The notes: generated from the sequence alone by a model not told the origin. A DNA stretch of 39,521 nt from Stramenopiles sp. TOSAG23-2 (GCA_900128395.1 LT649312.1:1-39521), one strand, 5' to 3'; counted from the first letter of the stretch, positions 1 to 39,521 are shown. Program-made: numbers and translations.

Positions 1-2322
1 CGTAATAATGGTAAAAATAATAATAATATGACATTGAAAGGATACGTGAATCAAGTCGGTAAAGATAGTTATGGTGAGACATATAGTACACCTTTAGAAA
101 TAGCAACAGACCAAGCCATTATTGATTATCTATTCTCCATTCTATTAGATGGAGAAGTAATAGATGGAGATAGTTATTATAGTTATTATAGTTTGTATAA
201 GGAAGCATTTCCACGCGGTACACCATTAGCATGTGCATGTGAAAAAGGACGTTTGGATGATGTGAAATTATTGATTACAAGCCATGATGTGAATGGTAGT
301 AAAATGACATTGAAAGAATACATAAATCAAAAAGGTAAAAGTAGCAATGGCGAAGAATGTACACCTTTAATAATAGCTGCACAGACAGTAGCAAAGTATT
401 TCATCGAGATCATATATCCAGATGCATCTAAATTAGAAAAGAAGTATTATGCAGAATTTCGACAAGGTACACCATTAGTATGTGCATGTCAAGAAGGACG
501 TTTACAGGATGTGAAATTATTGATTACAGGCCATCGGGTGAATCAAGAAGGTAAAAATAGTTCTGGTATAAGATGTACACCTTTACAGATAGCAACAGAC
601 CAAGCCATTATTGATTATCTATTCTCCATTCATTTAGATGGAGTAACACTTAATACAAATACATTGACTGGTGTATATAAAAACGAATTTCCGCGTGGTA
701 CGCCATTAGTATGTGCATGTGAAAAAGGACGTTTTGAGGATGTGAAATTATTGATTATAGGCCATGATGTGAATGGTAGTAATGGTAATAATAATAATAA
801 TATGACATTGAAAGAATACGTGAATCAAGTCGGTAAAACTAGTCGTGGTAATGATTATACACCTTTACTGATAGCTGCAGAGAACAAACATTTCCAAATA
901 GTTAAATATTTAGTTGAGATCATTTATCCTCATGCATCTAAAGTAGAAAAGAAATATTATGCAGAATCTCCAAAAGGTACGCCAATAGTATGTGCATGTG
1001 AAAAAGGACGTTTTGAGGATGTGAAATTATTGATTACAGGCCATGATGTGAATGGTAGTAATGGTAATAATAATATGACATTGAAAGAATACGTGAAGAA
1101 AGTCGGTCAATGTAGTGATGGTTATGACTATACACCTTTAAAAATAGCTGCAGAGAATAAACATCAAGACATATTAGACTATTTGGTAGATGCTGCATAT
1201 GCTGATGAAACTGAGATAGTAAGGAAATATAAAAAAGAATTTCCAGACGGTATGCCATTGGTATGTGCATGTGAAAAAGGACGTTTGGAAGATGTGAAAT
1301 TATTGATTACAGGCCATGATGTAAGAACAAGTGGTATGACATTGAAAGAAATGATAAATCAACCAGGTACAACTGGTGAAGGTGTTCGTACACCTTTAAG
1401 AGCAGCTGCAGAGAACAACCACCTAGAAATTATTGAATATATTGTAGATAGTGTATATGCTGATGAAACTGAGTTATTTCGAAAGTATAAGAAAGAATTT
1501 CAAGGTAATGTATTAGTATGTTTATGTGAGAAAGGACGTTTGGATGATGTGAAATTATTGATTGAAGACCATGATATGAATGGTAGTACAGATATTGGTA
1601 ATAGTATGACATTGAAAGAATATGCAAATCAAGTTGGTATAACTAGTAGAGATTGTTCTGAGCAAACACTAACACCTTTAGAAGCAGCTGCAAAAAACAA
1701 ACATTTTCACATAGTAGATTATTTAGTTGATATTATATATGAAATAAGAGATTTAAATTTGTTGGTCAAAAAATATATGAAAGAATTTCCAGAAGGTACG
1801 CCATTAGTATGTGCATGTGAAGAAGGACGTTTTGATGATGTGAAATTATTGATAACATGCTATGATGTGAATGGTAGTGATGGTAACAATATGGCATTGA
1901 AAGAAATGGTGAATCAAAAAGGTAAAAACAGTTGGGGTGGTGAATGTAAACCTTTGAGAATAGCTGCAGAGAAAGAACATTTTAAAATAACAAAGTATTT
2001 AGTCGAGATTGTTTACCCAGATGCAACTAAATTAGAAAAGAATTATTATATATATTATGGTGGCACGCCTTTGGTATGTGCATGTGAAAAAGGACGTTTG
2101 GATGATGTGAAATTATTGATTGAAGACCATGAGGAGAATGGTAGTAATGGTAATAATAATAATATGACATTGAAAGAATACGTGAATCAAGTCGGTATAG
2201 ATAGTGAAGGTGATGAACATACACCTTTAAGTGCAGCTGCAAATAATGAACATTTCCAAATAGTTAAATATTTGATTGAACAATGTGAAGCTGATCCTAA
2301 TATACGTGAATCAAGTCGGTAA
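1..2322 (+). CDS. 5' part of giant ANK-kinase-WWE-PARP/Nudix gene: tandem array of paired ankyrin-repeat units (5'-truncated by window edge)
   Basis: Frame is open from base 1. It has 8 near-constant repeats (TPLVCACEKGRL/FEDVKLLI) alternating with variable repeats (VNQVG-x-TPLxxAA). A 124-bp imperfect duplication (2178-2301 / 2302-2427) shifts the frame into the next ORF. Confidence 0.85.
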   Translation, partial: RNNGKNNNNMTLKGYVNQVGKDSYGETYSTPLEIATDQAIIDYLFSILLDGEVIDGDSYYSYYSLYKEAFPRGTPLACACEKGRLDDVKLLITSHDVNGSKMTLKEYINQKGKSSNGEECTPLIIAAQTVAKYFIEIIYPDASKLEKKYYAEFRQGTPLVCACQEGRLQDVKLLITGHRVNQEGKNSSGIRCTPLQIATDQAIIDYLFSIHLDGVTLNTNTLTGVYKNEFPRGTPLVCACEKGRFEDVKLLIIGHDVNGSNGNNNNNMTLKEYVNQVGKTSRGNDYTPLLIAAENKHFQIVKYLVEIIYPHASKVEKKYYAESPKGTPIVCACEKGRFEDVKLLITGHDVNGSNGNNNMTLKEYVKKVGQCSDGYDYTPLKIAAENKHQDILDYLVDAAYADETEIVRKYKKEFPDGMPLVCACEKGRLEDVKLLITGHDVRTSGMTLKEMINQPGTTGEGVRTPLRAAAENNHLEIIEYIVDSVYADETELFRKYKKEFQGNVLVCLCEKGRLDDVKLLIEDHDMNGSTDIGNSMTLKEYANQVGITSRDCSEQTLTPLEAAAKNKHFHIVDYLVDIIYEIRDLNLLVKKYMKEFPEGTPLVCACEEGRFDDVKLLITCYDVNGSDGNNMALKEMVNQKGKNSWGGECKPLRIAAEKEHFKITKYLVEIVYPDATKLEKNYYIYYGGTPLVCACEKGRLDDVKLLIEDHEENGSNGNNNNMTLKEYVNQVGIDSEGDEHTPLSAAANNEHFQIVKYLIEQCEADPNIRESSR

Positions 2323-5137
2323 AACTAGTGATGGTTGGCCATGTACACCTTTAACGATAGCTGCATGGTTCGAACATTTCCAAATAGTTAAATATTTGAT
2401 TGAACAATGTGAAGCTGATCCTAATATTGCAGATAGTGATGGATGGAATGCATTACATCATGCAGCAGGTCATAACAAAACAAATACTGATGTGATTAAA
2501 CTATTATTAATTCATATGACTTTTGTTAGTATTGTGAGTGAAACCCGAGACGGGGGATCATACAGTCCCACATACTGTTGTTTTGAATATAATTTCAGCC
2601 CAATTCGAGAAGCAATTATTGCACTTATAGATAATTGTGAAATCAACGGATATATTGATAATGATATTCACCCTGAACGATATGTATATATAGCCTGTTC
2701 AAAAAATCCAAAAGAATATATCAGTTTATACAATGGTTTACCAAATGATCATCAAAAATTAATCAAGAAAAATCTTCACTCTCTTATACCATCCGTAAAT
2801 TGTTATGCTAATTTATTGCAACAAACATTAAAGGATAATGTTGATGTTAAATTTCACATTTCACCATCACAAATAAACATAGAAGTTAGGAAAATGGAAA
2901 TACAATATGAAAAAGTTGTTGAATTGCAAAAGCAATATTATGAGCTAAATAGCAATATTAATATTGATAACTGTAATGATAATGCTTCAATTATTGAACG
3001 AAACAAGGCTAGAGAAAAATATCACAAACATGCCAATGCATACATAAATATTATGAACAATAATTCATTTGCTGAAGCATATATTAATTATCTTAGCCAG
3101 GCATATAGAACACTTACAATTGTTAATGATATTATGAAAACAAACTTTTATTTTTTTGGACCAAATACATTATCAGATAAACACAAAGAGAAACTCAAAA
3201 AATGTATCATAGAAGCAGGTCTAGATGATAACGACGACGGCAACGACATCGATGATGATGAAAGCGCTTTACCAATGAAAATTAAAATGGAAATGTTGGA
3301 TGCAATAAAAAAAGACAATATTGACAATTTTCAAAACTTAATAACTGAATATTCAACCCGTTTATCCAATGATTATGTAATTAATGAATTGAAAGAAGAA
3401 GCAAAAGCGGCCAATAACACACCTGCTATAGAGTTAATCCAGGAATGGTGTAATGAATTTATGGATGTAAATGCAGATATGGCATCAAGTGACAATAATA
3501 ATGATCAAGAAGCCAGTATTGAAAATATTACGTTAGATATTAGTACCGACAAGGATGGAGCAGACAATGTAGGTAGCGCCACAAACATATTAGACTATAA
3601 TTGTTTACACGAGAGATTTCACCATTTTCAAAGCAATTTTACTAGTTTATTTGCAAAAATTAGCAAAGACTCAACCAACGACATAACAGTAGAATTCATG
3701 GGAAATTTGTTAATGAAAGTGAACAAATTAATTATATATGCAACGGTATTCATGGATGAGATAAAATCATCTATCGATATAATAAAAGTATTATTAGATG
3801 AATTTGATGTATGCAAATTGAAGTATGAACAATGGAAGGAAATAGTAACGAAATTTGCTATTGTAGATGACAACAGCAATGCAACCTTCAATTGGGAATA
3901 CGTATATGAGTTTAATTGGGACCAAGTATATCAGGAGTTTAAAGAAAAAAAAAAACAATTTAAGAAATTATTGAAAATGTTAAAACATGCAAAACTAAAT
4001 ATGGATGACCGTGACGAAGATGATGACGAGCAAGAATTAGAAAATAATTTAAACAAAGCCAGGGACGACGTGAAGAAAGCATCAGACGAATTAAACAAAC
4101 AATCATTGGAACTTTTAAAAATTGGACGAGAACATTTTAGGGAAATAATACTACAATTTGGCAAGAAGATAGCCCTTGGAGGATTTAATGATGTAGGAAC
4201 TGTTTGGAAAGCAATTTATCATAAAGATTTGTTTGAGAAAGATGCAGCCCCGAAGAATCATCTCCAATCATTAAATGTGGTAGAGTTTGTTAAATTCAAA
4301 AATAAAAGTTATGTGCTAAAAAAATATAATTTGATAGATGACAAAACACGAAGAGGGTTTCGTCGAGAAATAAGAACTCTGTTGAGATTAAATCATCCAA
4401 ATGTTGTGTCTGTAAATGCAGCATTTCAACAAGTTGAAAAAGAAAAATTTTCAGGTGGGACACTCGAAAAATATTCTGGTTTCATACTCATGCCACGTTA
4501 TCAGAATGGTGATCTATTGCAATGGTTAGATGATAAACGGCCGAGTGTTTATCAAGTACGTGTTGTGCTTCAAGACGCACTTCGTGGTATTGCCGCGTTG
4601 CATAAGGAAAATATCATACATTGCGATATAAAACCAAAAAATATATTTGTTGATGCAAATGAGAATGGTTACATTGGTGATTTTGATGTAAGTCTAGATA
4701 AAAAAAGTAGAACAATGGCATCAAAATTGCGAAGTACGTCCATGGCAACAGGATTTAAAGGTGGTACCTGGGAATACATGGCACCAGAAATAAAGCAAGA
4801 AACAAACGCTTCTAATGCAACCTATTTTTCCGATATGTATTCTTTTGGAAAGTCTCTAAAAGAAACGTTACAAATTGCAAGTAAGATGGAAGTAAACGAG
4901 AAGAAATCGGACATGGATTCACAAAATCCTCAGACAACAACAAATGATAATGAAGAAGATCAAAGTCAAAAAAATATTTTAAAATTTGTAAAAGCACAGC
5001 GAGAAAAATTGGACGAAGCAAGAAATGATTTAATACTCAAATTGATGGATAAAGAGCCGGAAAAGCGAGGGAATGCAAATGATGCGTTAAATCATCCATA
5101 TTTTGGAAAAGCTGTAGCCGAACATCAAAACAAACAG
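2276..5137 (+). CDS. Middle part of giant gene: final ankyrin repeats, helical/coiled-coil region and Ser/Thr-type protein kinase domain (about 4270-5105)
   Basis: ANK motifs TPLTIAA and GWNALHHAA. Kinase motifs VLKKY, RRE helix C, HCDIKPKN, GDFD (DFG variant), GTWEYMAPE, SDMYSFG, HPYF. Ends at splice donor 5138. Confidence 0.85.
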
Positions 5138-5209
5138 GTATGTAATATTTATATATAAACCAATTTTATTAATACTAACATGTTTATTTTTGCATAATCA
5201 TATATACAG
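5138..5209 (+). other. 72-nt spliceosomal intron, phase 0, joining the kinase ORF to the PARP ORF
   Basis: CAG|GTATGT donor at 5138, TACTAAC branch point at 5173-5179, CAG| acceptor at 5209. Splicing is in frame (HQNKQ|DKELEKS) and removes the stop at 5156-5158. Confidence 0.9.
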
Positions 5210-7473
5210 GATAAGGAATTGGAAAAGAGTATAACGCACATTTTAAGCCTTCGCCAAGCCGAAGCAGATCGTTTAAGTGAATTTGTGCAATGGGGATATA
5301 CAAACCAAAATACTAAGTTTATTAAGTTGAACCATCAACATAATTACATTGTTGAAGAATCGTATCGGAAATGGAGAAGGTCGGGTAATGTTGCTACGGT
5401 TGATCTGGATGAAAATTCAATTGATAAAACATTTTATAATTATAAAACTAGAGACATTGATACTATGAATCACCGACGTTTGTATTCTATTTTTTTTGAG
5501 AAACATAAGCAGGCTTCAAACAATGGCGCAAACTTTTCTTGTAGTGGACATTGTTTTGAAAACAACAATAGTTTGATTCAAACGTTTGTGAGAAAAGATA
5601 CTGTTGCTGAATTACGATTTAGTTTAAAAGAAAAGGAAGAAGAAATTGCTGCACTCAAGGCAAAAATAGGTAGACTAGAGGCAGAGCTTGCAAAGACTAA
5701 ATCGTTATTAAAAAATACGCAAAAGGAATTGAAGGACAAAGATCGTCTTTTGAAAAAAACGCAAAGGGAATTGAAGGACTGTTACAATGAACTTCAAAAA
5801 AAAGAAGAAAAACTGAATTTACAAAAGAAACTCTATAAGAACAAAGATCGTCTTCTAAAAAAAGCACGTTCGCAAATGCGAGGGGATAGAAGGAAATTAC
5901 GCCCATTTGCTATGCCACCATATTGGAGGACGCATTTATTAGGTGAAACAAAGCCAAAACATTACAATACTGAATTTATGAAGAAAAAAATGGAAGAGTT
6001 GATACGAAAAACAAGTGTATTTAAAACAACAGATAAAGCTAAAGTGATAAAAGTTGAACGAGTGGAATATCCAGCATTATGGGCTAGTTACTGTGGCATG
6101 GCCGAGCAAACGCGTAAACGTCATGCAAAGGTATTGAAAAAAAATGAACATAGTTTGAAAATGAAGATGGGACAGAAACCTATAACATATAGACTTCCAA
6201 AAGATCGAGGAGGTAGAAGGGCTCCCTTATATACTATAACAACAACTAATATACGTAGTAATTATGATCGATCAAAAGTCTCTAAGACTTATAAAGGTGC
6301 TGGTATTCTCCCATATGCAATCGATAAAAATGGCACAATAAAAGTTCTATTAGGTCGAATAAATTATGGGATTATGGAACCATATGCCGACTTTGGTGGC
6401 CTGCGTGATCCTGGTGAAGATAGTACAAAATTTACTGCATCACGTGAGTTTACAGAAGAAACACAAGAGTTATTTAAGCACAATCAAGCAGAGACAATAG
6501 CTATGTTAGAGAACGAGAATACGAACAATGTTGTGAGGATACATAATGAATCTGCCCATTATGTTATGTATATGCTAAAGGTCGACTTTAATAAGTATCC
6601 TAAACATTATAAACAAGCACTGGAAACACCATCAAAATTGAAACATAAAATAGAATTATCAGAAATGAAATGGATTCCGTTAAAAGATATCATTAAAGCA
6701 GTCAAACAAGCCAAAAATAAAGGGCACTGTTACGATGTTGCCGTGAACAATGATAAGGAAATTATTTTAAGGAAAGAATTAGTTGACACATTGATTATTG
6801 CATATGACGGAGGTATTTTGGATAAAATAGTGAAAAAATCTTACTCTAGTATATCCAGGAAAAAAATATCTGCATCTATACAATATCCATTGTTTCAACT
6901 TGATACGCGTATTAATGAATTTTATTTATGGCATGGAACGAGTGCAGAGTCTGCTAAAATTTTGACCAGCACAGGCCTGCCAACAGAACACCTTGCTGGT
7001 TCAAACTCTGGTGCATTATATGGCAATGGAATGTATTTTGCTGAAAATTCTTCAAAATCCGATCAATATACACAGCCAGGTCGTCAAGGTCGTCGCGTTT
7101 TATTACTATGCCGTGTGGCACTGGGGAAAATATTTTACACGCCAAAAGCGTTGATAGGATTAAAACATCCTGGCCCTGGATGCAGTAACAAGTTTAAAAA
7201 CTTAAAGTCGACGCAAGGTGCTAAAAAGTTAGGTAGTGCTCTATTTGACTCCATTGTAGCAGATGGAAAAACGAATCGTTTTGGTGCAAAACAGATACAC
7301 CGAGAATTTGTAATATTTGATGCACAAAGATGTTATCCTGAATTCATAGTTTTGACTCCATTGTAGCAGATGGAAAAACGAATCGTTTTGGTGCAAAACA
7401 GATACACCGAGAATTTGTAATATTTGATGCACAAAGATGTTATCCTGAATTCATAGTATGGTACAAACACTAA
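5210..7473 (+). CDS. 3' exon: WWE-like domain, coiled coil, tankyrase-like PARP catalytic domain with inserted Nudix hydrolase
   Basis: WWE-like QWGY..IVEESY..YSIFFEKHKQ (about 5280-5530). PARP motifs PPYW, KVERVEYPALWASY, NEFYLWHGT, GMYFAENSSKSDQY, LLLCRVALG, HREFVIFD, YPEFIV. Nudix box GGLRDPGEDSTKFTASREFTEET at 6395-6463. As assembled it stops at 7366; collapsing the 107-bp duplication gives YPEFIVWYKH* ending at 7473. Confidence 0.85.
7244..7457. repeat. Exact 107-bp tandem duplication (7244-7350 / 7351-7457)
   Basis: Two identical copies read directly; it disrupts the PARP C-terminus. Confidence 0.95.
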
Positions 7474-7499
7474 ACACACTAAACACTAAACATGCATAG

Positions 7500-7943
7500 G
7501 TGTATTATTTATGGCATGGAACGAAGGCAGTGTTTGCTAAGATTTTGACAAGTACAGGTCTGCCAACAGAATACCTGGCTAGTTTAGGTTCACTATATGG
7601 CTTGGGAATGTATTTTGCTGAAAATGCTTCGAAATCGGATGAGTATGCAATATCTAAACAACCTGGACCAGGTCATGGAGTACTCTTGTTATGCCGTGTC
7701 GCATTAGGCAAAATATTTTACACGCCCGCAGGATTAAAAGGTTTAAAACATCCTGGCCCTGGATGTGGCTCTATGTTTGAAAAATTGGAGTCAACACAAG
7801 GTGGCAAAAAATTAGGCAGTGTTCTTTTTGACTCAATTGTAGCAGACAGAAAAAGTAGGGGCAGGTCACAGCATCATTGAGAGTTTGTTATATTTGATGC
7901 ACAAAGGTGTTATCCTGAATTCATTGTGACGTACAAACGCTAA
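7500..7943 (+). pseudogene. Second PARP catalytic core copy with in-frame TGA just before the catalytic Glu
   Basis: YYLWHGT..GMYFAENASKSDEY..LLLCRVALG..QHH*EFVIFDAQRCYPEFIVTYKR*. TGA 7878-7880 aligns with CGA (Arg) 7301-7303 of the first copy. No ATG or N-terminal PARP part. Confidence 0.8.
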
Positions 7944-8142
7944 AGACACGTTTTTTAGAATATCGTTATTTTTAGAATATCGTTAATCATATAACGCTTC
8001 GTATGTTCTATTCAATATCTAACTGTCTTACACTGGACATTATTTGCAATGTCTGGTTGTCTGCTTATTTATTATCGGAGGAGATGATGGTAATGTTGGT
8101 AGTGGCAATAATTCCGAGAATGTACGAGTAGAATATTATTGT

Positions 8143-8352
8143 TGAAATATATATGTTTGATCCAAGTCGATTTTATTTGTTTTGAAAAGCATACATGTGT
8201 GGGGAGTTTATGAATTCGGAATTCGGTGTGGAGAAGAATCTAAAATCTGAAATATATATGTTTGATCCAAGTCGATTTTATTTGTTTTGAAAAGCATACA
8301 TGTGTGGGGAGTTTATGAATTCGGAATTCGGTGTGGAGAAGAATCTAAAATC
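8143..8352. repeat. Exact 105-bp tandem duplication (8143-8247 / 8248-8352)
   Basis: Two identical non-coding copies. Confidence 0.95.
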
Positions 8353-10686: not shown

Positions 10687-13600
10687 ATGGCTGAAGTTAT
10701 AAATCCTGGACAAAAAGGTGGACAGGAAGATAGCTCAAAGCCCATCATTTGCTTAGCAGGTTGGTTTTATACTGATGAAAGCAGAACTTGGAAATCCTTT
10801 ATTAAACACCCAGATCTCGAAAATATACTAGAAAAATATGGTATAACAGTGAATAATCGCGTCCCAAAAAAAAAAAAAGAGTGTGACTTTTTATTAGTAA
10901 GTGAAGGGAATCCAGAAGATGAAAGAAAGGACAGCAAGGGAAAAAAATATTATTATAGGAATATAGCGCGAATAAAAATAAAAAGTAGCGAAACCAATCC
11001 TCAACAAAGTGATGAAAAACAAATTTGGATAGATGGATCGGATAAGTATGAAGCTGCAAAAAAATTAGGCATCGAAATAAAACACGACAAGGATGCACGT
11101 GCATACATTCAAGAATTGTTGAGTAATTCATATGAGATACATGAGTTAACAAAGGAGGGAACAGATGATGTGTGGCAAATAAGAAGATATGGACAATTTT
11201 TAATACACCTTTGGAAGCACAAGAAGCATACAATTATCCGTGGAATCGTTGCATTTGATAATGCAAAGAAGAAGATGGACGAGCTTGTCAAAGAAAAACG
11301 AAAAGAAGGATATGATGATATTGATAAAAACGAAAACTCGGAGTTCATAGGTCCCTCAAAACCATTCAAGTGCTCATCATTTCCACAAATAACGCCATTT
11401 TTATCTACTAAACAGAAAAATGAAAGAATTAAAGTATTTATACAAGATATTAAAGATTGCACGAAAAATAATTTTAAATTCAATATTATCATGAGTGATC
11501 TTGGGATGTTTGTAGAAATATTTTTACTGGAATTAAAGAAGTGTAAAAATAATAAGAAACTACAACGTATAAAAAATGGCATCAAAGAACAATTCAATCG
11601 TTTAGTGGAAGTTGCGAAGGAAAAAAAAAATACAGAAAAAGAAGGCAAAGATTGGTATTTTCTTTTAATACTTTTTCCTATGATCATAGCAATGGACGAA
11701 AACGAAAAAAACTATATACTTCAAAGGGATATGAAACGCATTGAGAACCAATATTACAACAGAAAATCTAAAACAGAGTCTAAAAAGGACAAATCACGTC
11801 AGGTTCCTAAGGAGCCTACTCATGACGATATGTATAAAACACATATACTTTCATGTAACCAACAAGAAAAGTTTAAAGAGCTACAACAGAAATTCAAAAA
11901 CTCAAAATCTATAGACAAAGTAGAAATAAAAAATTTTCATAAAGCTATTCGTGAGTCCATATCCCTAAAAACACTACAGAAAATGATTAAGTATATGAAG
12001 ATTAAAACGGACATAGCCGACATAGCCGAAATCCATAGCAATGAAGATGCGAAAAAAACAGAAATTACTGAAGACATAGTTGGTTTTGAATCAATCGATC
12101 CAGACGGTGGTTTGTTCACCAAAGCACCAATGGAAACTTCTAACAGTGGTGTCAACAACTTTTGCGCAGCATTCAGCTGCTGCTTTACAAGTCAAAAAAA
12201 CAATTATGTAAATTTTGTTCGCATTGGTATACTTATTCTCGAAGCAATTCCACAAATATTCAGGTTTGCTTTTGTGCACCGATGGAACAATTTATACCCG
12301 CATTTCGAGTTTAAAATAAAGCAAGCAGAAAGTGGGCGTCGATTAGTTGATGGGGGGGATGTAATTCGTAGGGCATCTAATGAAAAGTGGACAATTAGTA
12401 GGATTCAGCAGCATCAGGTAAAAAAGAGGTTTTATACATGTATCATGAGTGAGGATCTCAAAACAGAACTCACGGGCCGTATACAAAACTTAAAAAGAGG
12501 CGATGGTGAAGTATGCCTGGTTTTTCATGATACAGATAATTTCAAATATTTAAAAGCGCAGCATATTATAAAGATAGAAGAGAAAGAAAACCTCATTAAT
12601 TCCAATGATAAGACACTGAAATTTGAGTATAAATTCACATCAATTATTCTTATGACCTTCAACGATTTAATCGTTAATAAAATATTTGAAAATACGTATG
12701 TAACTAAAAAAAAAGAAAAAGAATATGAAAAAACGTACCTATGTGAAAAATTGCTTTTGGAAAATCTTTTGAAAACCACGCTTGAAAAATCCAGTGAGCA
12801 AGTTGACATTGTACATCGTATACCTGGACCAAATTGGGACAAAATTAAAGGTAAAACCATTGATGAAAATAGTAAACATCTTTTCGAAAACGCCATGATT
12901 GATGACTTAGATGTCACATGCATGAATGCCATTTTTAAAAATATAGGGGGCCTTTGTGACATGAAATCAGATCAATTCAACAAAGGGGAAAAGGAGAGAA
13001 AAAAATTGTACAAAAACAAGAACATTACGACTTTTGAAGCTTGGATAGATAAGGTTGGTGAATCAAACATTTCACCAGAAGTTATTCTTAATGAATTAAA
13101 ATTTATACGCAATAAAAAATTAGCACATCGTCATAGTACTAAGGTGCCTGACAAAGAATGGCGATATTGCAAAGAACTGTTTTTATATTTTTTGGGTATA
13201 TTGATAGAAAACAAATGGCTCAGCAAAGAGGAGGTCACAAAATTAAAAAAAAAAGTTAAAGAGGCAGAGGCTGTTAATATGAGCGACGGTATGAATACCG
13301 TGGAAAACATCCAAAGTAGAATGGAAACATTATTTTCAAATATTGACACGCAAGTAAAGGAATTTGAAAAAAACGTATCAAAGGTAAAGAAGGACGCACA
13401 ACAATTTGGAGACATAGTATCAAAGGCAGGTGATGATACACAGAGATTGGGAAAAGTTGTAACGAAGTTTGAAAAATTCGCAAGTTGCTTCGAAGATATG
13501 ATAAAAGTGTTGAATCTCAACAGTAATAATGATATAATAAAAAATGAAGAACGAAAAAATGACATGCAGAAACCTGTGAGTGATAAGATTAATTATAGCA

Positions 13601-16600
13601 ATGATTCTGGTGAAATAATTCATATAATAGTGGCCCAATTATTACTTTTAACTAAGCTAGCCGAAGGAGACAATGTTAGTAGAGAAAAACAATCCGATTT
13701 GGCCAGGAATCTAAAAAGGGCTTTGAACCAAGTGATGGATATAAGGAAAGATGTATCTTCTGGATGGTACCGCGCTTTAGACCTTCCTTCCATATTAGCT
13801 CCAATGAAAACATTAGCATTAAAATTAAATGCTATCTCATTGACAAATCCCGGAATGAATACAACATCATCACCAACAACAACAATATCATCAGATTCTA
13901 TATCCTCTGTTACAGGGCTTATTTATTTATGCATACCAAATATTGAAAAAGATAAATATGAAAATGTTAATATTCAATTTTTATTAGAAGCACAACATAT
14001 ACAACAATTTACAGGTGCAAAACTTTATCAAGGGAATTATGAAACGTTTTTAGAAACAATTGACTCACATGAAAATCAATCTATCAAATGGATACATTTT
14101 ATTGGACATGGTGGTAAAAATACATTTGGACGTGATTTAGGACTTGTATTAGCCGATGATAAAGGAAATTTAGAACATATTGAAGATGAACGTTTAATAA
14201 AAACATTGCGTACACGTACAACGCAACTCGAATTAGTAACATTTAATGCATGTTCTACAAGTAAATTAGTGGCCGCAATAACAAAACAAAATGGAGTGAA
14301 ACATTCATGGGGATGGTCAACAAAATGCCATGGTTATGCTGCAGCTATTATTGGAAAATGGTTTTATTATCATCATATAGTATTAAAGAAGTCCGTATTG
14401 GATGCATTTGAATGTGCAAAAAGTTATGTTGATGTAAAAACAAAAGTGATTGGAAAAGGTGTTGATAATGTTCTCATTTCAGAGGAACAATTTGTATTTG
14501 GTGATCCATCGAAAAAAACAAAAATTGATAACATGGATGTAGCTGGTATACCATTATTACTAAATAACAAATGGCAAGATAAATTTCCATATGCCTGGTA
14601 TGCACTTTCATATAAAAAAACATGGTCGAAGAAAATTCATAATAATAAATTTAATGAAGTGTTATATTATGTTTGTAGCAATGAAAATGAAATTTGCACT
14701 GTAACGGGCATACGTGGATGTGGTGGTGCAGGTAAAACTGTACTTTGTTTACAATTGGCTCAAGATCCGTTGATCTATTCGACATTTAAACACGGTGTTG
14801 TATATATCAAAGCAGGACAAGAAGCAAGACCGCTTAATATATTAAAACAATGTTTTAAACAATTGAAAGAGGACAAGAAATTAATTAAATTAAATATAAA
14901 GGATGAAAAAGATTATGAAATATATCTTGATGGAGAGAAAACGTTTGGGGTTGACGATGAAACAATGACGCGAAATTGGGTCAATGATAAAAAGTTAAAG
15001 TGGTTAGTTGAAAAATTACAGCAATATTTGCAAGGCATAGATTTACATGCTGTTGTTATTATTGATGATGTTTGGTCCGACAAGTGTTTTGATCACTTAA
15101 CTTCAATAATACAAGCAAAGGCATGCAATTCGCGTATTGTTATATCAACAAGAAATAGTACCATATTGGAAGGTAAAGATAAAAAAGAATTTTGTTTAGA
15201 TACATTAAATGAGACGGATGCCATTGATTTTTTCAAGGGGCAAACAAATGATAATGATAGTAATTGGAACGAAAACGACTTAAAAGATATTGTTAACAAG
15301 ACTGGCAAACTTGTCCTTTTTCTCTCCATATTAGCAAAAAAAGTTAACTTTAAAAACTACGAAGATGGTGGTTTAAATCGTATACTAAAAGCATTAGATC
15401 CTAATCGATCGACATTAAGAAACACTTCAATTGGATTAAAAAAAATCTTCAATAAAGCAGAAGATGATGTAGCATATGGAAAATCTGCATTAGCTTGCTT
15501 ATCAATTGGTGTTGATTTTATTGAAGATGATATTCAAGATGATCAAGGTAAAGAGGTACAAAATAAATATATCATGTTGGGTATATTTCCTGAAGATAGT
15601 GAAATATCATATGAAGCATTAAAGGTATTATGGAATTTTGATGATATAAATTATGTCGAAGAACATGTTGAATATTTTTCTAATCAATCTCTTTTAGTTA
15701 ATAATCGAACAGGTAAATATATTAAAATGCATAATTTACAGTGTAGATATGTGATTGAACGTTTGAAGGAAGATAATGATGGTATTGAAATTGATCAATT
15801 ACTTAAAATTATAGCAAGTACCATGGTTGAATTTCCAAATGCTTTTAAGGATTGTGTTGAAACGACCAACATTATTTGTTCATCGATTATATGTGCATGC
15901 GAGAGAGGGCGTTTGGAAGATCTCAACATATTGCTTGAAGCTAAGGATAGTGTTAATAAATTCGGCAAAAGCATTCGTGGTCATGAATGTACACCTTTAA
16001 TGGCAGCATGTGTATGTGGGCATTTAAAAATCGTAGAATTGCTATTGAGTAAAGGTGCTGATGTTTTACAAGCAGAAAGTCGATTTGGTTGGACTGCTTT
16101 GCATTGGACTATATTATGTGAACCAAAACCAGACGAATATATCCAGATAATAAATAAGCTTTTGGAGGTAAAAGCAGAAGCATTAGTAAATCAAAGAACA
16201 CGGCAAGGGGAAACTGCGTTAGATTGTGCAAGTAACAGACTTGATTCTGTTGAATTTTGTGAATTATTGAAAATGAAAGGGGGGAAACGAAGGGTCGAAT
16301 TAGAAGAATATACGAGGAAAGCTGAGCGGATAAATTACTTGTTTGAGGCGGTAAAAGATGATGATATGATAAGCATTTACATAGGTGAGCTAACTAATGG
16401 TGATGAAAATAGTGTACTAGAACATTATGTGGATGATAATGGCAATAATCTGCTTCATCATGCTGCAATGCATAGTAAAAATGCCGATACAATGAAATTA
16501 TTATTACAACACACGTTGTTAGAGGAAGCTGTATTTAAAAACGAAATCACAAAAAAGACACCATTAGATGTTGCAAAGGAACGTAAGAAAAAAAACGACG

Positions 16601-17031
16601 AAACAGAGATTAAAAACAAAATTACTAAAAAGGCGCCATCGGAAATTGAAGTTATGATTGCATTGTTAATGAAAACCAAATACGTAAAAGATTTATATGC
16701 AGCTGTTAAAAATGATAACCAGGCTTCAATAATAGAATGCATAAAGCAGCTCGATAGTCTAGCTTTAATACTGTATGGCAAGGGTGAAAAGATTATACTA
16801 GGGCATTATTTGAATGATGCTTGCAATAATCTGCTTCATCATGCTGCAATGCATAGTAAAAAGGCCAGTACAATGAAATTATTATTACAATACATGTTGT
16901 TAGAGGATGCTGTATTTGAAAACAAAATCACGAAAAAGACACCATTACAGGTCGCAGAGGAACGGAAGAAAGAAAACGACGGAACAGAGATTAAAGAGAT
17001 AATTACATTGTTAAAGATGAAATTTGAGTAG
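10687..17031 (+). CDS. STAND NB-ARC (APAF-1-like) NLR-type protein: BRCT - WGR-like - HEPN - coiled coil - CHAT protease - NB-ARC - ankyrin repeats
   Basis: BRCT: IICLAGWF..LENILEKYG..GSDKYEAAKKLGI. WGR-like: RRYG..AKKKMDELVKEKRKEGY. HEPN: NFVRIGILIL..FRFAFVHRW, DLDVT, RNKKLAH (13108-13128). CHAT: HFIGHG (His 14107), FNACS (Cys 14251). Walker A GCGGAGKT (14716-14739), Walker B VVIIDDVW, sensor ISTRN, MHN (15727). ANK: TPLMAACVCGH, GWTALHW, GETALD, NLLHHAA twice. Confidence 0.88.
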   Translation: MAEVINPGQKGGQEDSSKPIICLAGWFYTDESRTWKSFIKHPDLENILEKYGITVNNRVPKKKKECDFLLVSEGNPEDERKDSKGKKYYYRNIARIKIKSSETNPQQSDEKQIWIDGSDKYEAAKKLGIEIKHDKDARAYIQELLSNSYEIHELTKEGTDDVWQIRRYGQFLIHLWKHKKHTIIRGIVAFDNAKKKMDELVKEKRKEGYDDIDKNENSEFIGPSKPFKCSSFPQITPFLSTKQKNERIKVFIQDIKDCTKNNFKFNIIMSDLGMFVEIFLLELKKCKNNKKLQRIKNGIKEQFNRLVEVAKEKKNTEKEGKDWYFLLILFPMIIAMDENEKNYILQRDMKRIENQYYNRKSKTESKKDKSRQVPKEPTHDDMYKTHILSCNQQEKFKELQQKFKNSKSIDKVEIKNFHKAIRESISLKTLQKMIKYMKIKTDIADIAEIHSNEDAKKTEITEDIVGFESIDPDGGLFTKAPMETSNSGVNNFCAAFSCCFTSQKNNYVNFVRIGILILEAIPQIFRFAFVHRWNNLYPHFEFKIKQAESGRRLVDGGDVIRRASNEKWTISRIQQHQVKKRFYTCIMSEDLKTELTGRIQNLKRGDGEVCLVFHDTDNFKYLKAQHIIKIEEKENLINSNDKTLKFEYKFTSIILMTFNDLIVNKIFENTYVTKKKEKEYEKTYLCEKLLLENLLKTTLEKSSEQVDIVHRIPGPNWDKIKGKTIDENSKHLFENAMIDDLDVTCMNAIFKNIGGLCDMKSDQFNKGEKERKKLYKNKNITTFEAWIDKVGESNISPEVILNELKFIRNKKLAHRHSTKVPDKEWRYCKELFLYFLGILIENKWLSKEEVTKLKKKVKEAEAVNMSDGMNTVENIQSRMETLFSNIDTQVKEFEKNVSKVKKDAQQFGDIVSKAGDDTQRLGKVVTKFEKFASCFEDMIKVLNLNSNNDIIKNEERKNDMQKPVSDKINYSNDSGEIIHIIVAQLLLLTKLAEGDNVSREKQSDLARNLKRALNQVMDIRKDVSSGWYRALDLPSILAPMKTLALKLNAISLTNPGMNTTSSPTTTISSDSISSVTGLIYLCIPNIEKDKYENVNIQFLLEAQHIQQFTGAKLYQGNYETFLETIDSHENQSIKWIHFIGHGGKNTFGRDLGLVLADDKGNLEHIEDERLIKTLRTRTTQLELVTFNACSTSKLVAAITKQNGVKHSWGWSTKCHGYAAAIIGKWFYYHHIVLKKSVLDAFECAKSYVDVKTKVIGKGVDNVLISEEQFVFGDPSKKTKIDNMDVAGIPLLLNNKWQDKFPYAWYALSYKKTWSKKIHNNKFNEVLYYVCSNENEICTVTGIRGCGGAGKTVLCLQLAQDPLIYSTFKHGVVYIKAGQEARPLNILKQCFKQLKEDKKLIKLNIKDEKDYEIYLDGEKTFGVDDETMTRNWVNDKKLKWLVEKLQQYLQGIDLHAVVIIDDVWSDKCFDHLTSIIQAKACNSRIVISTRNSTILEGKDKKEFCLDTLNETDAIDFFKGQTNDNDSNWNENDLKDIVNKTGKLVLFLSILAKKVNFKNYEDGGLNRILKALDPNRSTLRNTSIGLKKIFNKAEDDVAYGKSALACLSIGVDFIEDDIQDDQGKEVQNKYIMLGIFPEDSEISYEALKVLWNFDDINYVEEHVEYFSNQSLLVNNRTGKYIKMHNLQCRYVIERLKEDNDGIEIDQLLKIIASTMVEFPNAFKDCVETTNIICSSIICACERGRLEDLNILLEAKDSVNKFGKSIRGHECTPLMAACVCGHLKIVELLLSKGADVLQAESRFGWTALHWTILCEPKPDEYIQIINKLLEVKAEALVNQRTRQGETALDCASNRLDSVEFCELLKMKGGKRRVELEEYTRKAERINYLFEAVKDDDMISIYIGELTNGDENSVLEHYVDDNGNNLLHHAAMHSKNADTMKLLLQHTLLEEAVFKNEITKKTPLDVAKERKKKNDETEIKNKITKKAPSEIEVMIALLMKTKYVKDLYAAVKNDNQASIIECIKQLDSLALILYGKGEKIILGHYLNDACNNLLHHAAMHSKKASTMKLLLQYMLLEDAVFENKITKKTPLQVAEERKKENDGTEIKEIITLLKMKFE
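16420..16997 (+). repeat. Internal duplication of a C-terminal ankyrin unit (about 16420-16615 and about 16803-16997)
   Basis: HY(V/L)..NNLLHHAAMHSK.A.TMKLLLQ..LLE.AVF.N.ITKKTPL.VA.ERKK.ND.TEIK occurs twice with high DNA identity. Confidence 0.85.
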
Positions 17032-30037: not shown

Positions 30038-30587
30038 CTGTACTATGTATTGTTGTCGTATGTGTGGTGTTGTTTGTTGTTTGTTGTTGATGTCATTTTT
30101 TATTTAATATATTAAAACAAGATAATATATAAAGCTTCAAGACCTGTGGGAGGATATGACGAAGTAAAAAAAAGACGCGCAAAAAGGAAGTATATTGAGA
30201 GAGAGATGGAAAAGAGGTAAAGAAGAGTGTATTATATTGATATTTTTTGTTGTGTGCAAAAAGAAGAGTGTTGAGATTAAAAAAAAATATTTTTTTTACT
30301 TCTACTTCAGTGTAATTATAATAAGTGTTTTGTTGTGTTGTTGTTATAGTTATTCCTCATCATTCAATTTCCAATTCAATTCAATTTGAATGTAAATTGG
30401 TTTATCATGTAGAAAGTAATAGATAGATAGAACAACGACGGTTTACAATTACTGTTATAATTGTATTTTGGATACATCGAATAATACTTATACATATATA
30501 CATACGTTGTATTAATATATATATATATACTATTATTAAAGGTAAAATAATTAAAATAATTAAATTATAAAATTATAAATATAAAAA

Positions 30588-31814
30588 ATGAATATGAATA
30601 CTACCGAAGTCACAGTGAATGGCATTCTATCCACTGGCCTTGATGATAAGTCAAAATTACATGCATTGGAGCGACTAAGGGCCAGGGTAAACTTTGAGAT
30701 TACAAAAATACGCAAACATCGCCTACAAAATTATGATTTTTCAACATTACCTGGTATTGATGATATTTGCGTGAAAACAATCATACCATATCTTTGTAAT
30801 GATACTCAAGCATTAGTAAATATGTTTGCAAGAACCACTAAACGTTTTCTTAATGTATCAACAGTACAAGTTGCTTATTATAAAATAGTTTTACCGAGAA
30901 AATATGTTTGTATTCCAGGAAATGAATTGATTCATGGAAGCAAATGTGGTACATTAACACTAAAAGATGCATCGATATTAGTGAATACGTTAAACCATTC
31001 AATCCGGCTGTTTGAAAATAATGATTCAATGTTGCATTGTTTGCACTATGCAGGACTTAATGGCCATTTATCGATTGTGCAGTTTTTGGTAGAGGAATTT
31101 GACATGGATATACATGTAAAGGATGGAGAGGGTAATTGTGTTACGTATTTAAGTGCCTTACATGGGAACATGGGTGTAGCAGACTATTTAGTAGCAAAAG
31201 GCGGTGATTTGCATAACAAAAACAAAGGGGTGTTGGATAGGTTAACAGCACATTATAAGAAAGAATTTCCACGCATTTCGCCATTAGTGTGTTTATGTAA
31301 AAAAGGACGTTTAGAGGATGTGCAATTATTGATTAAAGCAGTCCATGATGTGAATAGTAGTAATGGCAATGGTATGGCAGTGAAAGAATACGTGAATAAA
31401 GCCGGTAGAACCAGTACAGCCAGTAGAAGTCGGGAAGTTACACCTTTAATGGCAGCTGCAGGGGGCGAACATTTCCAAGTAGTTAAATATTTAATTGAAC
31501 AATGTGAAGCTGATCCTAATATTGCAGATAGTTATGGACAGAATGCATTACATTGGGCAGTAGGTACTAAGAGAACGGATACTGGTGTGATTCAGCTCTT
31601 GTTGAATAATATGTCTCTTGATAGTATTAATAAGAAGAGCAGGTGGGGATACACTCCCCTGGACAGGGCATATCAATATAATAATAGACTATTATTTAAT
31701 AATAGTCCAATTCGCTACCAAGAGATCATTAGGCTTATACGTTCAAAAGGTGGAAAAGCAAATGTTCATGATGAAAATGGTAGAGGTTTAATAAAAAATT
31801 CATGCATTTATTAA
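30588..31814 (+). CDS. F-box-like + ankyrin-repeat protein
   Basis: F-box-like FSTLPGIDDICVKTIIPYL..NMFARTTKRF (about 30738-30858). ANK repeats CLHYAGLNGH, YLSALHGN, SPLVCLCKKG, TPLMAAA, NALHWA, YTPLDRA. The last units are near-identical in DNA to those at 2372-2437. Confidence 0.8.
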   Translation: MNMNTTEVTVNGILSTGLDDKSKLHALERLRARVNFEITKIRKHRLQNYDFSTLPGIDDICVKTIIPYLCNDTQALVNMFARTTKRFLNVSTVQVAYYKIVLPRKYVCIPGNELIHGSKCGTLTLKDASILVNTLNHSIRLFENNDSMLHCLHYAGLNGHLSIVQFLVEEFDMDIHVKDGEGNCVTYLSALHGNMGVADYLVAKGGDLHNKNKGVLDRLTAHYKKEFPRISPLVCLCKKGRLEDVQLLIKAVHDVNSSNGNGMAVKEYVNKAGRTSTASRSREVTPLMAAAGGEHFQVVKYLIEQCEADPNIADSYGQNALHWAVGTKRTDTGVIQLLLNNMSLDSINKKSRWGYTPLDRAYQYNNRLLFNNSPIRYQEIIRLIRSKGGKANVHDENGRGLIKNSCIY

Positions 31815-37833: not shown

Positions 37834-39521
37834 TTAATTATTATGTAGGAATATCTCCATCCTTTTCACTTGTTGATACCCGTTTGATCCAGCTTGTTTA
37901 TATTGTTGTATAGCTTTTAATTGTGATTTCATATTAGAACTAAGTTGATTATTAACTAGGCGCAATCTCCATAATGTATTGTTTGTTTTTAATCCATCAA
38001 TAATACTTTGTACATCAGTAATATTATTATTATATAGGCGCAAGAACTCTAATGTCTTGTTTGTTTTTAATCCTTCACCAATACTTTGTACATCAGTAAT
38101 ATTATTACCATATAGGTACAAGTGCGTTAATGTATTGTTTGTTTTTAATCCATCACCAATACTTTGTACATCAGTAATATTATTATCATCTAGGAGCAAT
38201 ATCGTTAATGTCTTGTTTGTTTTTAATCCTTCACCAATACTTTGTACATCAGTAATATTATTACCATATAGGTACAAGTGCGTTAATGTATTGTTTGTTT
38301 TTAATCCATCACCAATACTTTGTACATCAGTAATATTATTACCATATAGGTACAAGTGCGTTAATGTATTGTTTGTTTTTAATCCATCACCAATACTTTG
38401 TACATCAGTAATATTATTATTACCTAGGTCCAATCTCGTTAATGTATTGTTTGTTTTTAATCCATCACCAATACTTTGTATTCCACCATCATCAGTAATA
38501 TTATTATTATATAGGTTCAATACTCTTAATGTATTGTTTGTTTTTAATGCTTCGCCAATACTTTGTACATCAGTAATATTATTATCATGTAGGAGCAATA
38601 CCTGTAATGTATTGTTTGTTTTTAATCCTTCACCGATACTTTGTACATCAGTAATATTATTATTACGTAGGTACAATGTCTCTAATGTATTATTTGTTTT
38701 TAATCCTTCGCCAATAATTTGTACATCAGTAATATTATTATTAGATAGGGACAATTTCATTAATGTATTGTTTGATTTTAATCCTTCACCAATACTTTGT
38801 ACATCAGTAATAGTATTATTATTTAGGTACAATTCCGTTAATGTATTGTTTGTATTTAATGCTTCACCAATACTTTGTACATCAGTAATATTATTACCAG
38901 ATAGATACAATTCCTTTAATGTATTGTTTGTTTTTAATGCTTCACCAATACTTTGTACATCAGTAATATTATTATTACGTAGGACCAATGTCTCTAATGT
39001 ATTGTTTGTTTTTAACCCTTCACCAATACTTTGTACATCAGTAATATTATTATTACGCAGGTACAATGTCTCTAATGTATTGTTTGTTTTCAACAATTCA
39101 CCAATACTTTGTACATCAGTAATATTATTATTATCTAGGTCCAAGTTCGTTAACGTATAGTTCGTTAATGTATTGTTTGTTTTTAATGCATCACCAATAC
39201 TTTGTACATCAGTAATAGTATTATTATTTAGGTACAACCTCGTTAATGTATTGTTTGTTTTTAATGCATCACCAATACTTTGTACATCAGTAATATTATT
39301 ATTACGTAGGGCCAAGTACATCAATGTATTGTTTGTTTTTAACACTTCACCAATACTTTGTACATCCTCATCACGGATGTTCTTTCCATCCAAATTTACA
39401 TTACTGTCAGCAAAATTGACTCCATATTTTTTTGTTAATACAACTCTAAAATAATAACAACGCAAAGGATCATATTCAAGAAATTTTTTACATGTTTTCG
39501 CAAACATATTTATCATTGCAA
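37834..39521 (-). CDS. Probable F-box + LRR protein with 18 tandem 26-aa RI-like LRRs (probably 5'-truncated by window edge)
   Basis: 78-bp unit DVQSIG(E/D)xLKTNNTLxxLxLxxNNIT, 18 copies. N-terminal INMFAKTCKKFL..YYFRVVLTKKY aligns with the end of the F-box-like region of the 30588 gene (VNMFARTTKRFL..YYKIVLPRKY). Confidence 0.88.
   Translation of the reverse strand, partial: AMINMFAKTCKKFLEYDPLRCYYFRVVLTKKYGVNFADSNVNLDGKNIRDEDVQSIGEVLKTNNTLMYLALRNNNITDVQSIGDALKTNNTLTRLYLNNNTITDVQSIGDALKTNNTLTNYTLTNLDLDNNNITDVQSIGELLKTNNTLETLYLRNNNITDVQSIGEGLKTNNTLETLVLRNNNITDVQSIGEALKTNNTLKELYLSGNNITDVQSIGEALNTNNTLTELYLNNNTITDVQSIGEGLKSNNTLMKLSLSNNNITDVQIIGEGLKTNNTLETLYLRNNNITDVQSIGEGLKTNNTLQVLLLHDNNITDVQSIGEALKTNNTLRVLNLYNNNITDDGGIQSIGDGLKTNNTLTRLDLGNNNITDVQSIGDGLKTNNTLTHLYLYGNNITDVQSIGDGLKTNNTLTHLYLYGNNITDVQSIGEGLKTNKTLTILLLDDNNITDVQSIGDGLKTNNTLTHLYLYGNNITDVQSIGEGLKTNKTLEFLRLYNNNITDVQSIIDGLKTNNTLWRLRLVNNQLSSNMKSQLKAIQQYKQAGSNGYQQVKRMEIFLHNN

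Follow-up and report, generated by a model that had tools for sequence, protein, structure and literature searches.

A predicted kinase-PARP protein with a nested Nudix domain, and its plausible link to an ankyrin-repeat array, in Stramenopiles sp. TOSAG23-2

Three long open reading frames (ORFs) at the start of a 39,521-nt stretch of DNA from Stramenopiles sp. TOSAG23-2 (GCA_900128395.1 LT649312.1:1-39521; hereafter the window, meaning the whole stretch, in whose coordinates all positions are given) raise the question of whether they encode one protein or several. They lie on the plus strand, as do all features described here unless stated: ORF1 (1-2322) in frame 1, with its 5' end open at the window edge, and ORF2 (2276-5158; protein P0002) and ORF3 (5198-7366; protein P0003), both in frame 2. 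A first-pass annotation had read them as one protein of more than 2400 aa, an ankyrin-repeat (ANK) array followed by kinase, WWE-like and PARP(Nudix) parts. Once either copy of a 124-nt duplication, a 72-nt intron, and one copy of a 107-nt duplication are removed, 1-7473 (guanine-cytosine [GC] content of ~30-38%) becomes one frame of 2389 aa plus a stop with 0 internal stops; its 5' end is open, and this corrected length is that of the visible part only. Judged by their sequences, the joining of the kinase ORF and the PARP ORF into one gene is well supported, whereas the ANK link is plausible only. We consider it probable that a single gene encodes a product running from ANK array through helical region, kinase, linker and coiled coil to PARP(Nudix).

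The join between ORF2 and ORF3 is marked by a 72-nt, phase 0 intron (5138-5209) with the spliceosomal signals GTATGT..TACTAAC..CAG. Its GC content is 16.7%, against 33% in either flank, and it contains two in-frame stops. When both strands of the whole window were scanned for GTA[TA]GT, a branch-like site and AG, with at least 60 open codons required on each side, this was the sole candidate, flanked by 954 and 718 open codons. The first methionine of ORF3 is residue 90 (nt 5465). A 955-aa homologue, P0007, which is the second-best HMMER match to ORF3, carries a Pkinase domain (58-309) and a PARP domain (807-954) in a single ORF and is continuous across the point equivalent to the intron. It aligns with residues 602-945 of P0002 at 33% identity (4e-46) and with residues 159-717 of P0003 at 31% identity (1e-82), the two matches following each other in the order of the ORFs. 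P0007 represents a cluster of six, among them proteins of 955 and 968 aa encoded on 5.5-8.5 kb metagenome contigs. The signals, the low GC content and the collinear, uninterrupted homologue bear out the earlier claim that a canonical in-frame intron joins the kinase and PARP ORFs, and we infer that the 72 nt are spliced out. We regard as established which domains are present and in what order, as well as the signals of the intron and the kinase-to-PARP collinearity with P0007.

DNA and RNA runs (X1, X2, X6 and X20) were compared as assembled contigs. PolyA and oligo-dT RNA from two studies yields contigs that agree with the exons, at 0-2 differences, over 5981-6239 (X20) and 5217-5364, 6262-6450, 6496-6646 and 7376-7526 (X6); much of 2671-4806 has no RNA contig among these runs, which carries no weight either way. 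One X6 contig (record 24) matches 4994-5138 and then continues for 5 unmatched letters; because base 5138 equals base 5210, its stop at the donor is as for a spliced read. A DNA contig of a related strain (X2, 4454-5305) retains the intron sequence; its other differences, a 12-nt deletion and a +1/-1 pair separated by 5 nt, all leave the frame unchanged. Window DNA, and polyA RNA contigs that match it, are found repeatedly in marine metagenomes and metatranscriptomes, and the host is an AT-rich, intron-poor marine eukaryote.

ORF3 carries a PARP domain, which scores 72.1 bits (Pfam PF00644; cut-off, 26.7; E 5.7e-20) and is divided into an N-terminal part at 5912..6145, containing PPYW ... VERVEYPALW and aligning with PARP15 57-82, and a C-terminal part at 6887..7473. 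The H-Y-E triad lies where it had been placed, at His 6932 (CAT), Tyr 7034 (TAT) and Glu 7304 (GAA), within LWHGT, GMYFA and REFV, and the three columns are kept in 42/45, 43/45 and 41/45 aligned rows, respectively. An AlphaFold2 (AF2) model of 5210-7351, built on the 45-row alignment, has a mean predicted local distance difference test score (pLDDT) of 72.7, rising to ~90 over the PARP and Nudix parts. In a search of the model against representative structures, PARP structures align over model residues 235..714, with TNKS2 at Z 20.3 (root-mean-square deviation [rmsd], 2.2; 178 aligned), PARP15 at Z 19.4 (rmsd, 2.9; 182/192) and PARP10 at Z 18.6. By sequence, the domain is nearest to PARP15/14 among solved structures (PARP15, 1.2e-7; PARP14, 5e-7; tankyrase, 9e-5). 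The triad had also been offered as a sign of chain formation. A passage of PMC9189837 describes PARP3 and PARP4 as carrying H-Y-E and making only mono-ADP-ribose. Because these two are mono-ADP-ribosyltransferases (mono-ARTs), H-Y-E is not sufficient for chain formation; with these counterexamples, and a domain nearest to PARP15/14, that claim is not supported.

Between the two PARP parts lies a Nudix-fold insert (6263..6877) with a Nudix box at 6398-6469. The NUDIX profile (PF00293) scores 20.5 bits in the whole ORF (E 5.1e-4), just under the cut-off of 21.1, and 23.1 bits for the stretch alone. Model residues 352-556 adopt a Nudix fold, matching RenU (Z 11.2; 134 aligned, 356..545), DCP2 (11.1), a CoA pyrophosphatase (10.6), and NrtR and the NadM ADPRase domain (10.2); ~30 more Nudix entries follow RenU and DCP2 at Z of at least 9, and the tied values (within ~1) single out no substrate class. 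In this confident model, the Nudix domain (~200 aa) and its linkers are predicted to split the PARP fold into residues 235-312 and ~560-714. Relatives without the insert have ~40 residues at the same PARP loop. The occurrence of a Nudix domain together with PARP, as first proposed, is thus upheld by the Pfam score of the stretch and the fold match, and its position is inside the PARP fold. The Nudix box consensus is G-x5-E-x7-R-E-U-x-E-E-x-G-U; the window has G-x5-E-x8-REFTEETQE, with the RE..EE core intact, and its closest homologue, P0005, is identical in this. Such nesting is seen here in three sequence clusters only: the window, P0005 and P0007, in which the Nudix part is degenerate.

Upstream of the intron, a protein kinase domain occupies 4142..5137 (Pkinase 1.2e-31, P0002 residues 673-942), scoring 110.6 bits against a cut-off of 31.7 (Pfam PF00069). 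Its fold is a standard one: in a structural search with the model, a RIPK and IRAK4 score Z 24.3, a value shared with many further entries. The VLK Lys, the alpha-C Glu and APE are kept, the catalytic loop reads HCDIKPKN, and DFDVS replaces DFG; it is a predicted Ser/Thr-type kinase. It is preceded by an all-helical region of ~495 aa (2658..4141; AF2 helices 9-495), modeled with pLDDT mostly of 40-70 and of 84-88 for residues 423-495. Searches of the ESM Atlas and a word-based search returned no relatives of the helical region, and residues 125-959 of P0002 gave 17 matches, all to the kinase only. The family described below also conserves the final helical hairpin ahead of the kinase; residues 602-640 of P0002 align with the N terminus of P0007.

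Downstream of the intron, the kinase is connected to the PARP domain by a linker and a coiled-coil helix. The linker (~130 aa, 5210..5602), with AF2 pLDDT below 50 for residues 32-133, is the stretch that had been called WWE-like and assigned a role as ADP-ribose reader. Pfam gives no WWE match at E of 10 or less for 5210-5605 or for the linker of P0007, hhalign compares the two linkers with the WWE-bearing relative P0078 at a probability of 0.2, and the ESM Atlas holds no usable match to the linker. The window and P0007 linkers also match each other without significance (BLASTP E 3.3). Pfam, hhalign, the Atlas and AF2 therefore lend no support to a WWE reader, which is not a disproof. The following ~98 aa (5603..5896) form a predicted coiled-coil helix (AF2 helix 132-229, pLDDT 81-94). 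Two copies of 5582-5914 are predicted to form a parallel, in-register dimer with heptad-spaced contacts, at a score of 0.60 (best of 3 controls, 0.00), a partner pLDDT of at least 87 and agreement between runs in at least 96% of contacts. The mark used was reached by 21/30 solved homo-pairs and 0/23 single chains (17/29 versus 0/30 for eukaryotes), although coiled coils may pass this test through likeness to solved structures. The model thus supports pairing of the coiled coil, which may bring two chains together.

The first-pass annotation did not recognize this architecture, but its kinase-PARP core is found repeatedly in public protist data. ORF3, used as the query of an exhaustive HMMER search, returned 2644 proteins at E of 1e-3 or less. 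From the 150 best matches, 92 (37 + 55) were scanned with Pfam, mostly the longer ones; the shortest were omitted save the Nudix-only P0065, and P0005 was omitted as well. Pkinase and PARP are both above their cut-offs in 6/92 relatives (P0007, P0056, P0083, P0087, P0090 and P0114), and P0110 is a partial case in which the kinase end falls under the cut-off. P0083 is an MMETSP transcript ORF, P0056 a Paulinella micropora gene model, and P0087 and P0090 metagenome ORFs. Family members share the helical region, a kinase with D[FL]D-x-S, the coiled coil, a PARP domain with P-x-Y-W ... VERVEN..LW, and the H-Y-E end. The D[FL]D-x-S motif, in place of DFG, is common to six full-length members and the fragment P0114, whereas 7/7 generic kinases checked have D[FL]G. 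In a maximum-likelihood tree with 13 other kinases, the 6 PARP-fused kinases, including P0002, fall on one side of a 98/96 branch; the outgroup is small, P0056 and P0083 sit on long branches, and P0176, which has no HxD, was dropped. P0007 also has an insert in its PARP domain, and most relatives lack the Nudix insert, with ~40 aa at the loop. Given splicing of 5138-5209, the window protein would thus belong to an unnamed kinase-PARP family. The gene is real, and it has at its core a kinase, coiled coil and PARP that make it a member of a little-studied protist family.

The wider PARP clade has other partners among the 92 scanned relatives: HEAT, EF-hand, TSP1, LCCL, CCCH fingers, IIGP GTPase, PIF1 helicase, ANK (P0086) and one WWE (P0078). 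The named relatives belong to Amoebophrya and Symbiodinium. As a separate observation, P0068 fuses the PARP clade to an interferon-inducible-type GTPase (IIGP) and P0138 to a PIF1 helicase, pairings that recall antiviral PARPs. Scanning metagenomes with the helical and kinase part found 0 related loci among 105 pattern matches, and scanning viral contigs with P0003 found 0 among 17. A second metagenome scan (query A1) found just two distant PARP loci, L001 and L002 (30-38% identity, contigs of 1.5-2 kb). A word-based search for neighbours of P0003 gave 2 matches among 7997 candidates, and one for longer relatives gave none, which is weak evidence.

We now turn to the ANK array, which occupies 1..2304 in frame 1 as ~273-nt units of two ANK repeats each. 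Pfam matches Ank_2 in ORF1 at 6.3e-68, in 9 stretches, and the repeats form families D1-D7 at a spacing of 255-291 nt. The exact contigs listed for the DNA run X1 cover 249-617 and 1545-2100. The array ends in an imperfect tandem duplication of 2 x 124 nt (2181-2304 and 2305-2428; 102/124 identical), whose copies are identical over their first 17 nt and again over the last ~57 nt. This duplication shifts the frame by +1 and leads to a stop at 2320-2322, and a terminal ANK module follows in frame 2 (2305..2657; Ank_2 1.7e-11, P0002 residues 3-79). The earliest ATG in ORF2 is at nt 2516, with 80 open ANK-coding codons upstream of it. A paralogue, the ORF at 30585-31811 (53% identity, 1e-31), has the same terminal module once, in frame with the preceding ANK unit. 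Because deletion of either 124-nt copy restores the frame, the ANK tail of ORF2 has no start and the paralogue has the module once, we conclude that array and kinase would have shared one reading frame, at least ancestrally. The proposal that dropping one copy links the array in frame thus stands as to the frame itself; the copies are not exact, and the presence of the array in the same protein as kinase-PARP is plausible.

Related ANK sequences occur elsewhere in the window. The terminal module (…EHFQ.VKYLIEQCEADPNIADS…) recurs at 30585-31811, and the module 'CACE(K/R)GRLED' of the array is also used by the ANK part of the protein encoded at 10687-17028. Other means of repairing the ANK break were considered. 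There are 125 GT..AG pairs that keep the frame open across it, none with the signals of 5138-5209, and no exact 124-nt GT..AG excision exists. An intron at 2306-2432 (GTGAAT..CAG, 127 nt) would repair the frame, as speculation, and a programmed +1 frameshift at CGG-UAA-A is unlikely.

A second duplication affects the 3' end of the gene. It is an exact tandem repeat of 107 nt (7244-7350 and 7351-7457) that turns the last residues from ...EFIVWYKH into ...EFIVLTPL; the stop lies at 7364-7366 as assembled and at 7471-7473 with one copy dropped. A 5700-nt contig of DNA run X1 skips the second copy without a break, and the C terminus of P0005, ...EFIVWYKH, agrees with the frame that has a single copy. 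The 107-nt duplication is probably an assembly artefact, as it is missing from the X1 contig. Both comparisons lower trust in the assembly at short repeats, although the parallel with the 124-nt copies is imperfect, as those are not identical. Just downstream lies a decayed partial copy of the PARP C-terminal half (7500..7943; PARP 1.5e-13; 77-86% nt identity at a 583-nt spacing), with an in-frame TGA at 7878-7880 where the first copy has CGA. The X6 RNA contig at 7376-7526 runs into this half-copy. As an alternative 3' exon, the half-copy was rejected by eye: its phase misfits the only nearby donor, GTATTA, and it has the TGA. The AT-rich spacer downstream of the gene also holds a tandem pair of 105-nt units (8126-8335), 93% identical.

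Several observations weigh against a single gene that encodes the whole array-to-PARP protein with its proposed activities. At the level of catalysis, the window kinase, aligned to P0007, has an ATP loop without the usual glycines, and is glycine-poor in this respect within its family; the Nudix box carries an additional loop residue and a Q for the late G; and P0007 has lost its Nudix box, and hydrolysis is therefore not constant in the family. At the level of expression, no assembled contig of X6 or X20 is shown to bridge the intron and none lies over 5139-5216, and the RNA data are all short assembled contigs, possibly including DNA. At the ANK join, none of the contigs listed spans 2100-2658, and the 5700-nt X1 contig opens with 82 letters, upstream of 2658, that have no match in the window. 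The assembled sequence contains the frame break at 2304/2305, and the two copies differ at 22 positions, unlike an exact-copy artefact. ANK, kinase and PARP occur together in 0/92 scanned relatives. The PARP half-copy, finally, shows that this locus does undergo real duplications.

One alternative is that the frameshift is real. The ANK array would then be decoupled (as a truncated ANK-only product or none), and the sole full product would be a helical-kinase-PARP(Nudix) protein that could start, for instance, at the ATG at 2516. The break stands in the assembled sequence between diverged copies (102/124), the family relatives found have helical N termini and no ANK array, and the half-copy at 7500-7943 is another real duplication. 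We nonetheless regard this alternative as unlikely, though deserving of serious consideration: the 80 ANK-coding codons of ORF2 are open upstream of any ATG, the 773-codon ANK ORF is intact as far as the break, the 107-nt duplication of the same assembly is missing in an independent contig, and the ANK region is high-copy in each run compared (summed contig depth in X1 in the thousands versus 237 for the unique part) and prone to misassembly. The +1 shift within the array and the repeated 107 nt at the 3' end appear to be assembly flaws or very recent lesions and not the structure of a working gene.

That the locus as a whole is a pseudogene, decaying within an expanded family, is very unlikely. 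The frameshifted array, the C terminus as altered in the assembly and the dead half-copy with its TGA next door would fit such decay, but the intron is flanked by 954 and 718 open codons, the catalytic motifs of kinase, PARP and Nudix are retained, the indels of the related strain keep the frame, RNA contigs from two studies match the exons, and the 107-nt lesion is not in the X1 contig. Least credible is a division into three genes, one for an ANK protein, one for a kinase that ends VCNIYI* and one for a PARP protein from Met 90 of ORF3, with the intron as intergenic spacer, for although every ORF is long in itself and the RNA contigs stop short of bridging 5138-5209, the spacer would be just 72 nt with full splice signals, both ORFs share phase, the fusion is seen in single-ORF P0007 and 5 more kinase and PARP proteins, including the MMETSP transcript, and 89 open residues of ORF3 would be lost.

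If the single-gene reading is right, the families of its domains suggest how the protein could work. The ANK array would recruit partner proteins, by analogy with tankyrase, and the coiled coil would pair two chains. Recruited proteins would be phosphorylated by the kinase and ADP-ribosylated, at the expense of NAD+, by the PARP domain, or the two domains would modify each other in these ways. The Nudix insert would cut the ADP-ribose pyrophosphate, free or protein-bound, leaving the mark trimmed or converted. Of the sensor-coupled writer, reader and eraser with a kinase that had been envisaged, the writer, the possible eraser and the kinase are reasonable to retain; the WWE reader and poly-ADP-ribose are unsupported. 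A more specific scheme, which we put forward as a long shot by analogy, is a two-step writer: PARP would attach ADP-ribose and the nested Nudix domain would cut its pyrophosphate, yielding a phosphoribose mark and AMP, in a dimer with a kinase and an ANK target arm that would act as a conflict or immune-type effector. In chemical terms, this would be similar to Legionella SidE, with its ART-plus-phosphodiesterase logic. Should both enzymes be active, ADP-ribose writing, its processing and phosphorylation would be combined in one dimer, a compact and testable model of crosstalk.

The neighbours of the gene in the window are ordinary eukaryotic ones: a CHAT/NB-ARC/ANK protein, an LRR membrane protein, a CAP-Gly/RanBD/PP2C protein, a CDK-like kinase and a C2-domain protein. 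No tRNA genes were found in the window. The first neighbour (10687-17028) is a 2114-aa, NLR-like STAND protein in which a weak CHAT match is accompanied by NB-ARC, an APAF-1-type winged helix and ANK repeats. At the far end, on the minus strand, an ORF of at least 561 aa (37834-39519), open at the window end, consists of ~20 near-identical 'NNITDVQSIGEGLKTNNTL' leucine-rich repeats (LRR_4 7.3e-49).

PARP domains are known to combine with many sensor and reader modules. In two PARP surveys (PMC2964712 and PMC4245714), the passages on kinases contain no kinase-PARP fusion and the word 'Nudix' is absent from both texts; literature searches on kinase-PARP fusions found no paper, with subscription journals and supplements outside their scope. 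Nudix enzymes that act on ADP-ribose or bind it (NUDT16 and RppH, whose substrate is protein-bound ADP-ribose; ADPR pyrophosphatases; and the ADPR-binding NrtR) share the fold of the window domain, which keeps the REFTEE core; that domain is an insert in a PARP domain, whereas theirs is a free enzyme. Some Nudix enzymes can cut protein-conjugated ADP-ribose to phosphoribose (PMC4680915).

ANK repeats and PARP are also combined elsewhere among protists. A passage of PMC4245714 reports ANK with PARP in Naegleria gruberi, Monosiga and Dictyostelium, a combination that the window protein would share, with no Nudix insert reported for them, and true tankyrases are given as confined to animals in a passage of PMC2964712. 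The likeness to tankyrase (ANK-SAM-PARP, clade 4) is loose. Both would have an ANK array N-terminal to an H-Y-E PARP domain, with the window's ANK link plausible only, and both would have a self-association element between the two, which in the window is the predicted coiled coil; the top fold match is TNKS2, tied with PARP15. The SAM domain of tankyrase has no counterpart among Pfam matches at E of 0.1 or less in the three ORFs. The window protein has an extra kinase, helical region and Nudix domain, and its sequence match to tankyrase is weaker than that to PARP15.

The human clade 3 mono-ARTs PARP15, PARP14 and PARP10 have the same N-terminal strand-helix element as the window PARP domain. 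They carry H-Y-I or H-Y-L, whereas the window keeps Glu; the window protein has no macrodomains, and the kinase and nested Nudix domain are on its side only. It adds to a lineage-expanded clade of marine-protist PARPs fused to GTPases, helicases, zinc fingers and repeat arrays, like the antiviral PARPs of animals.

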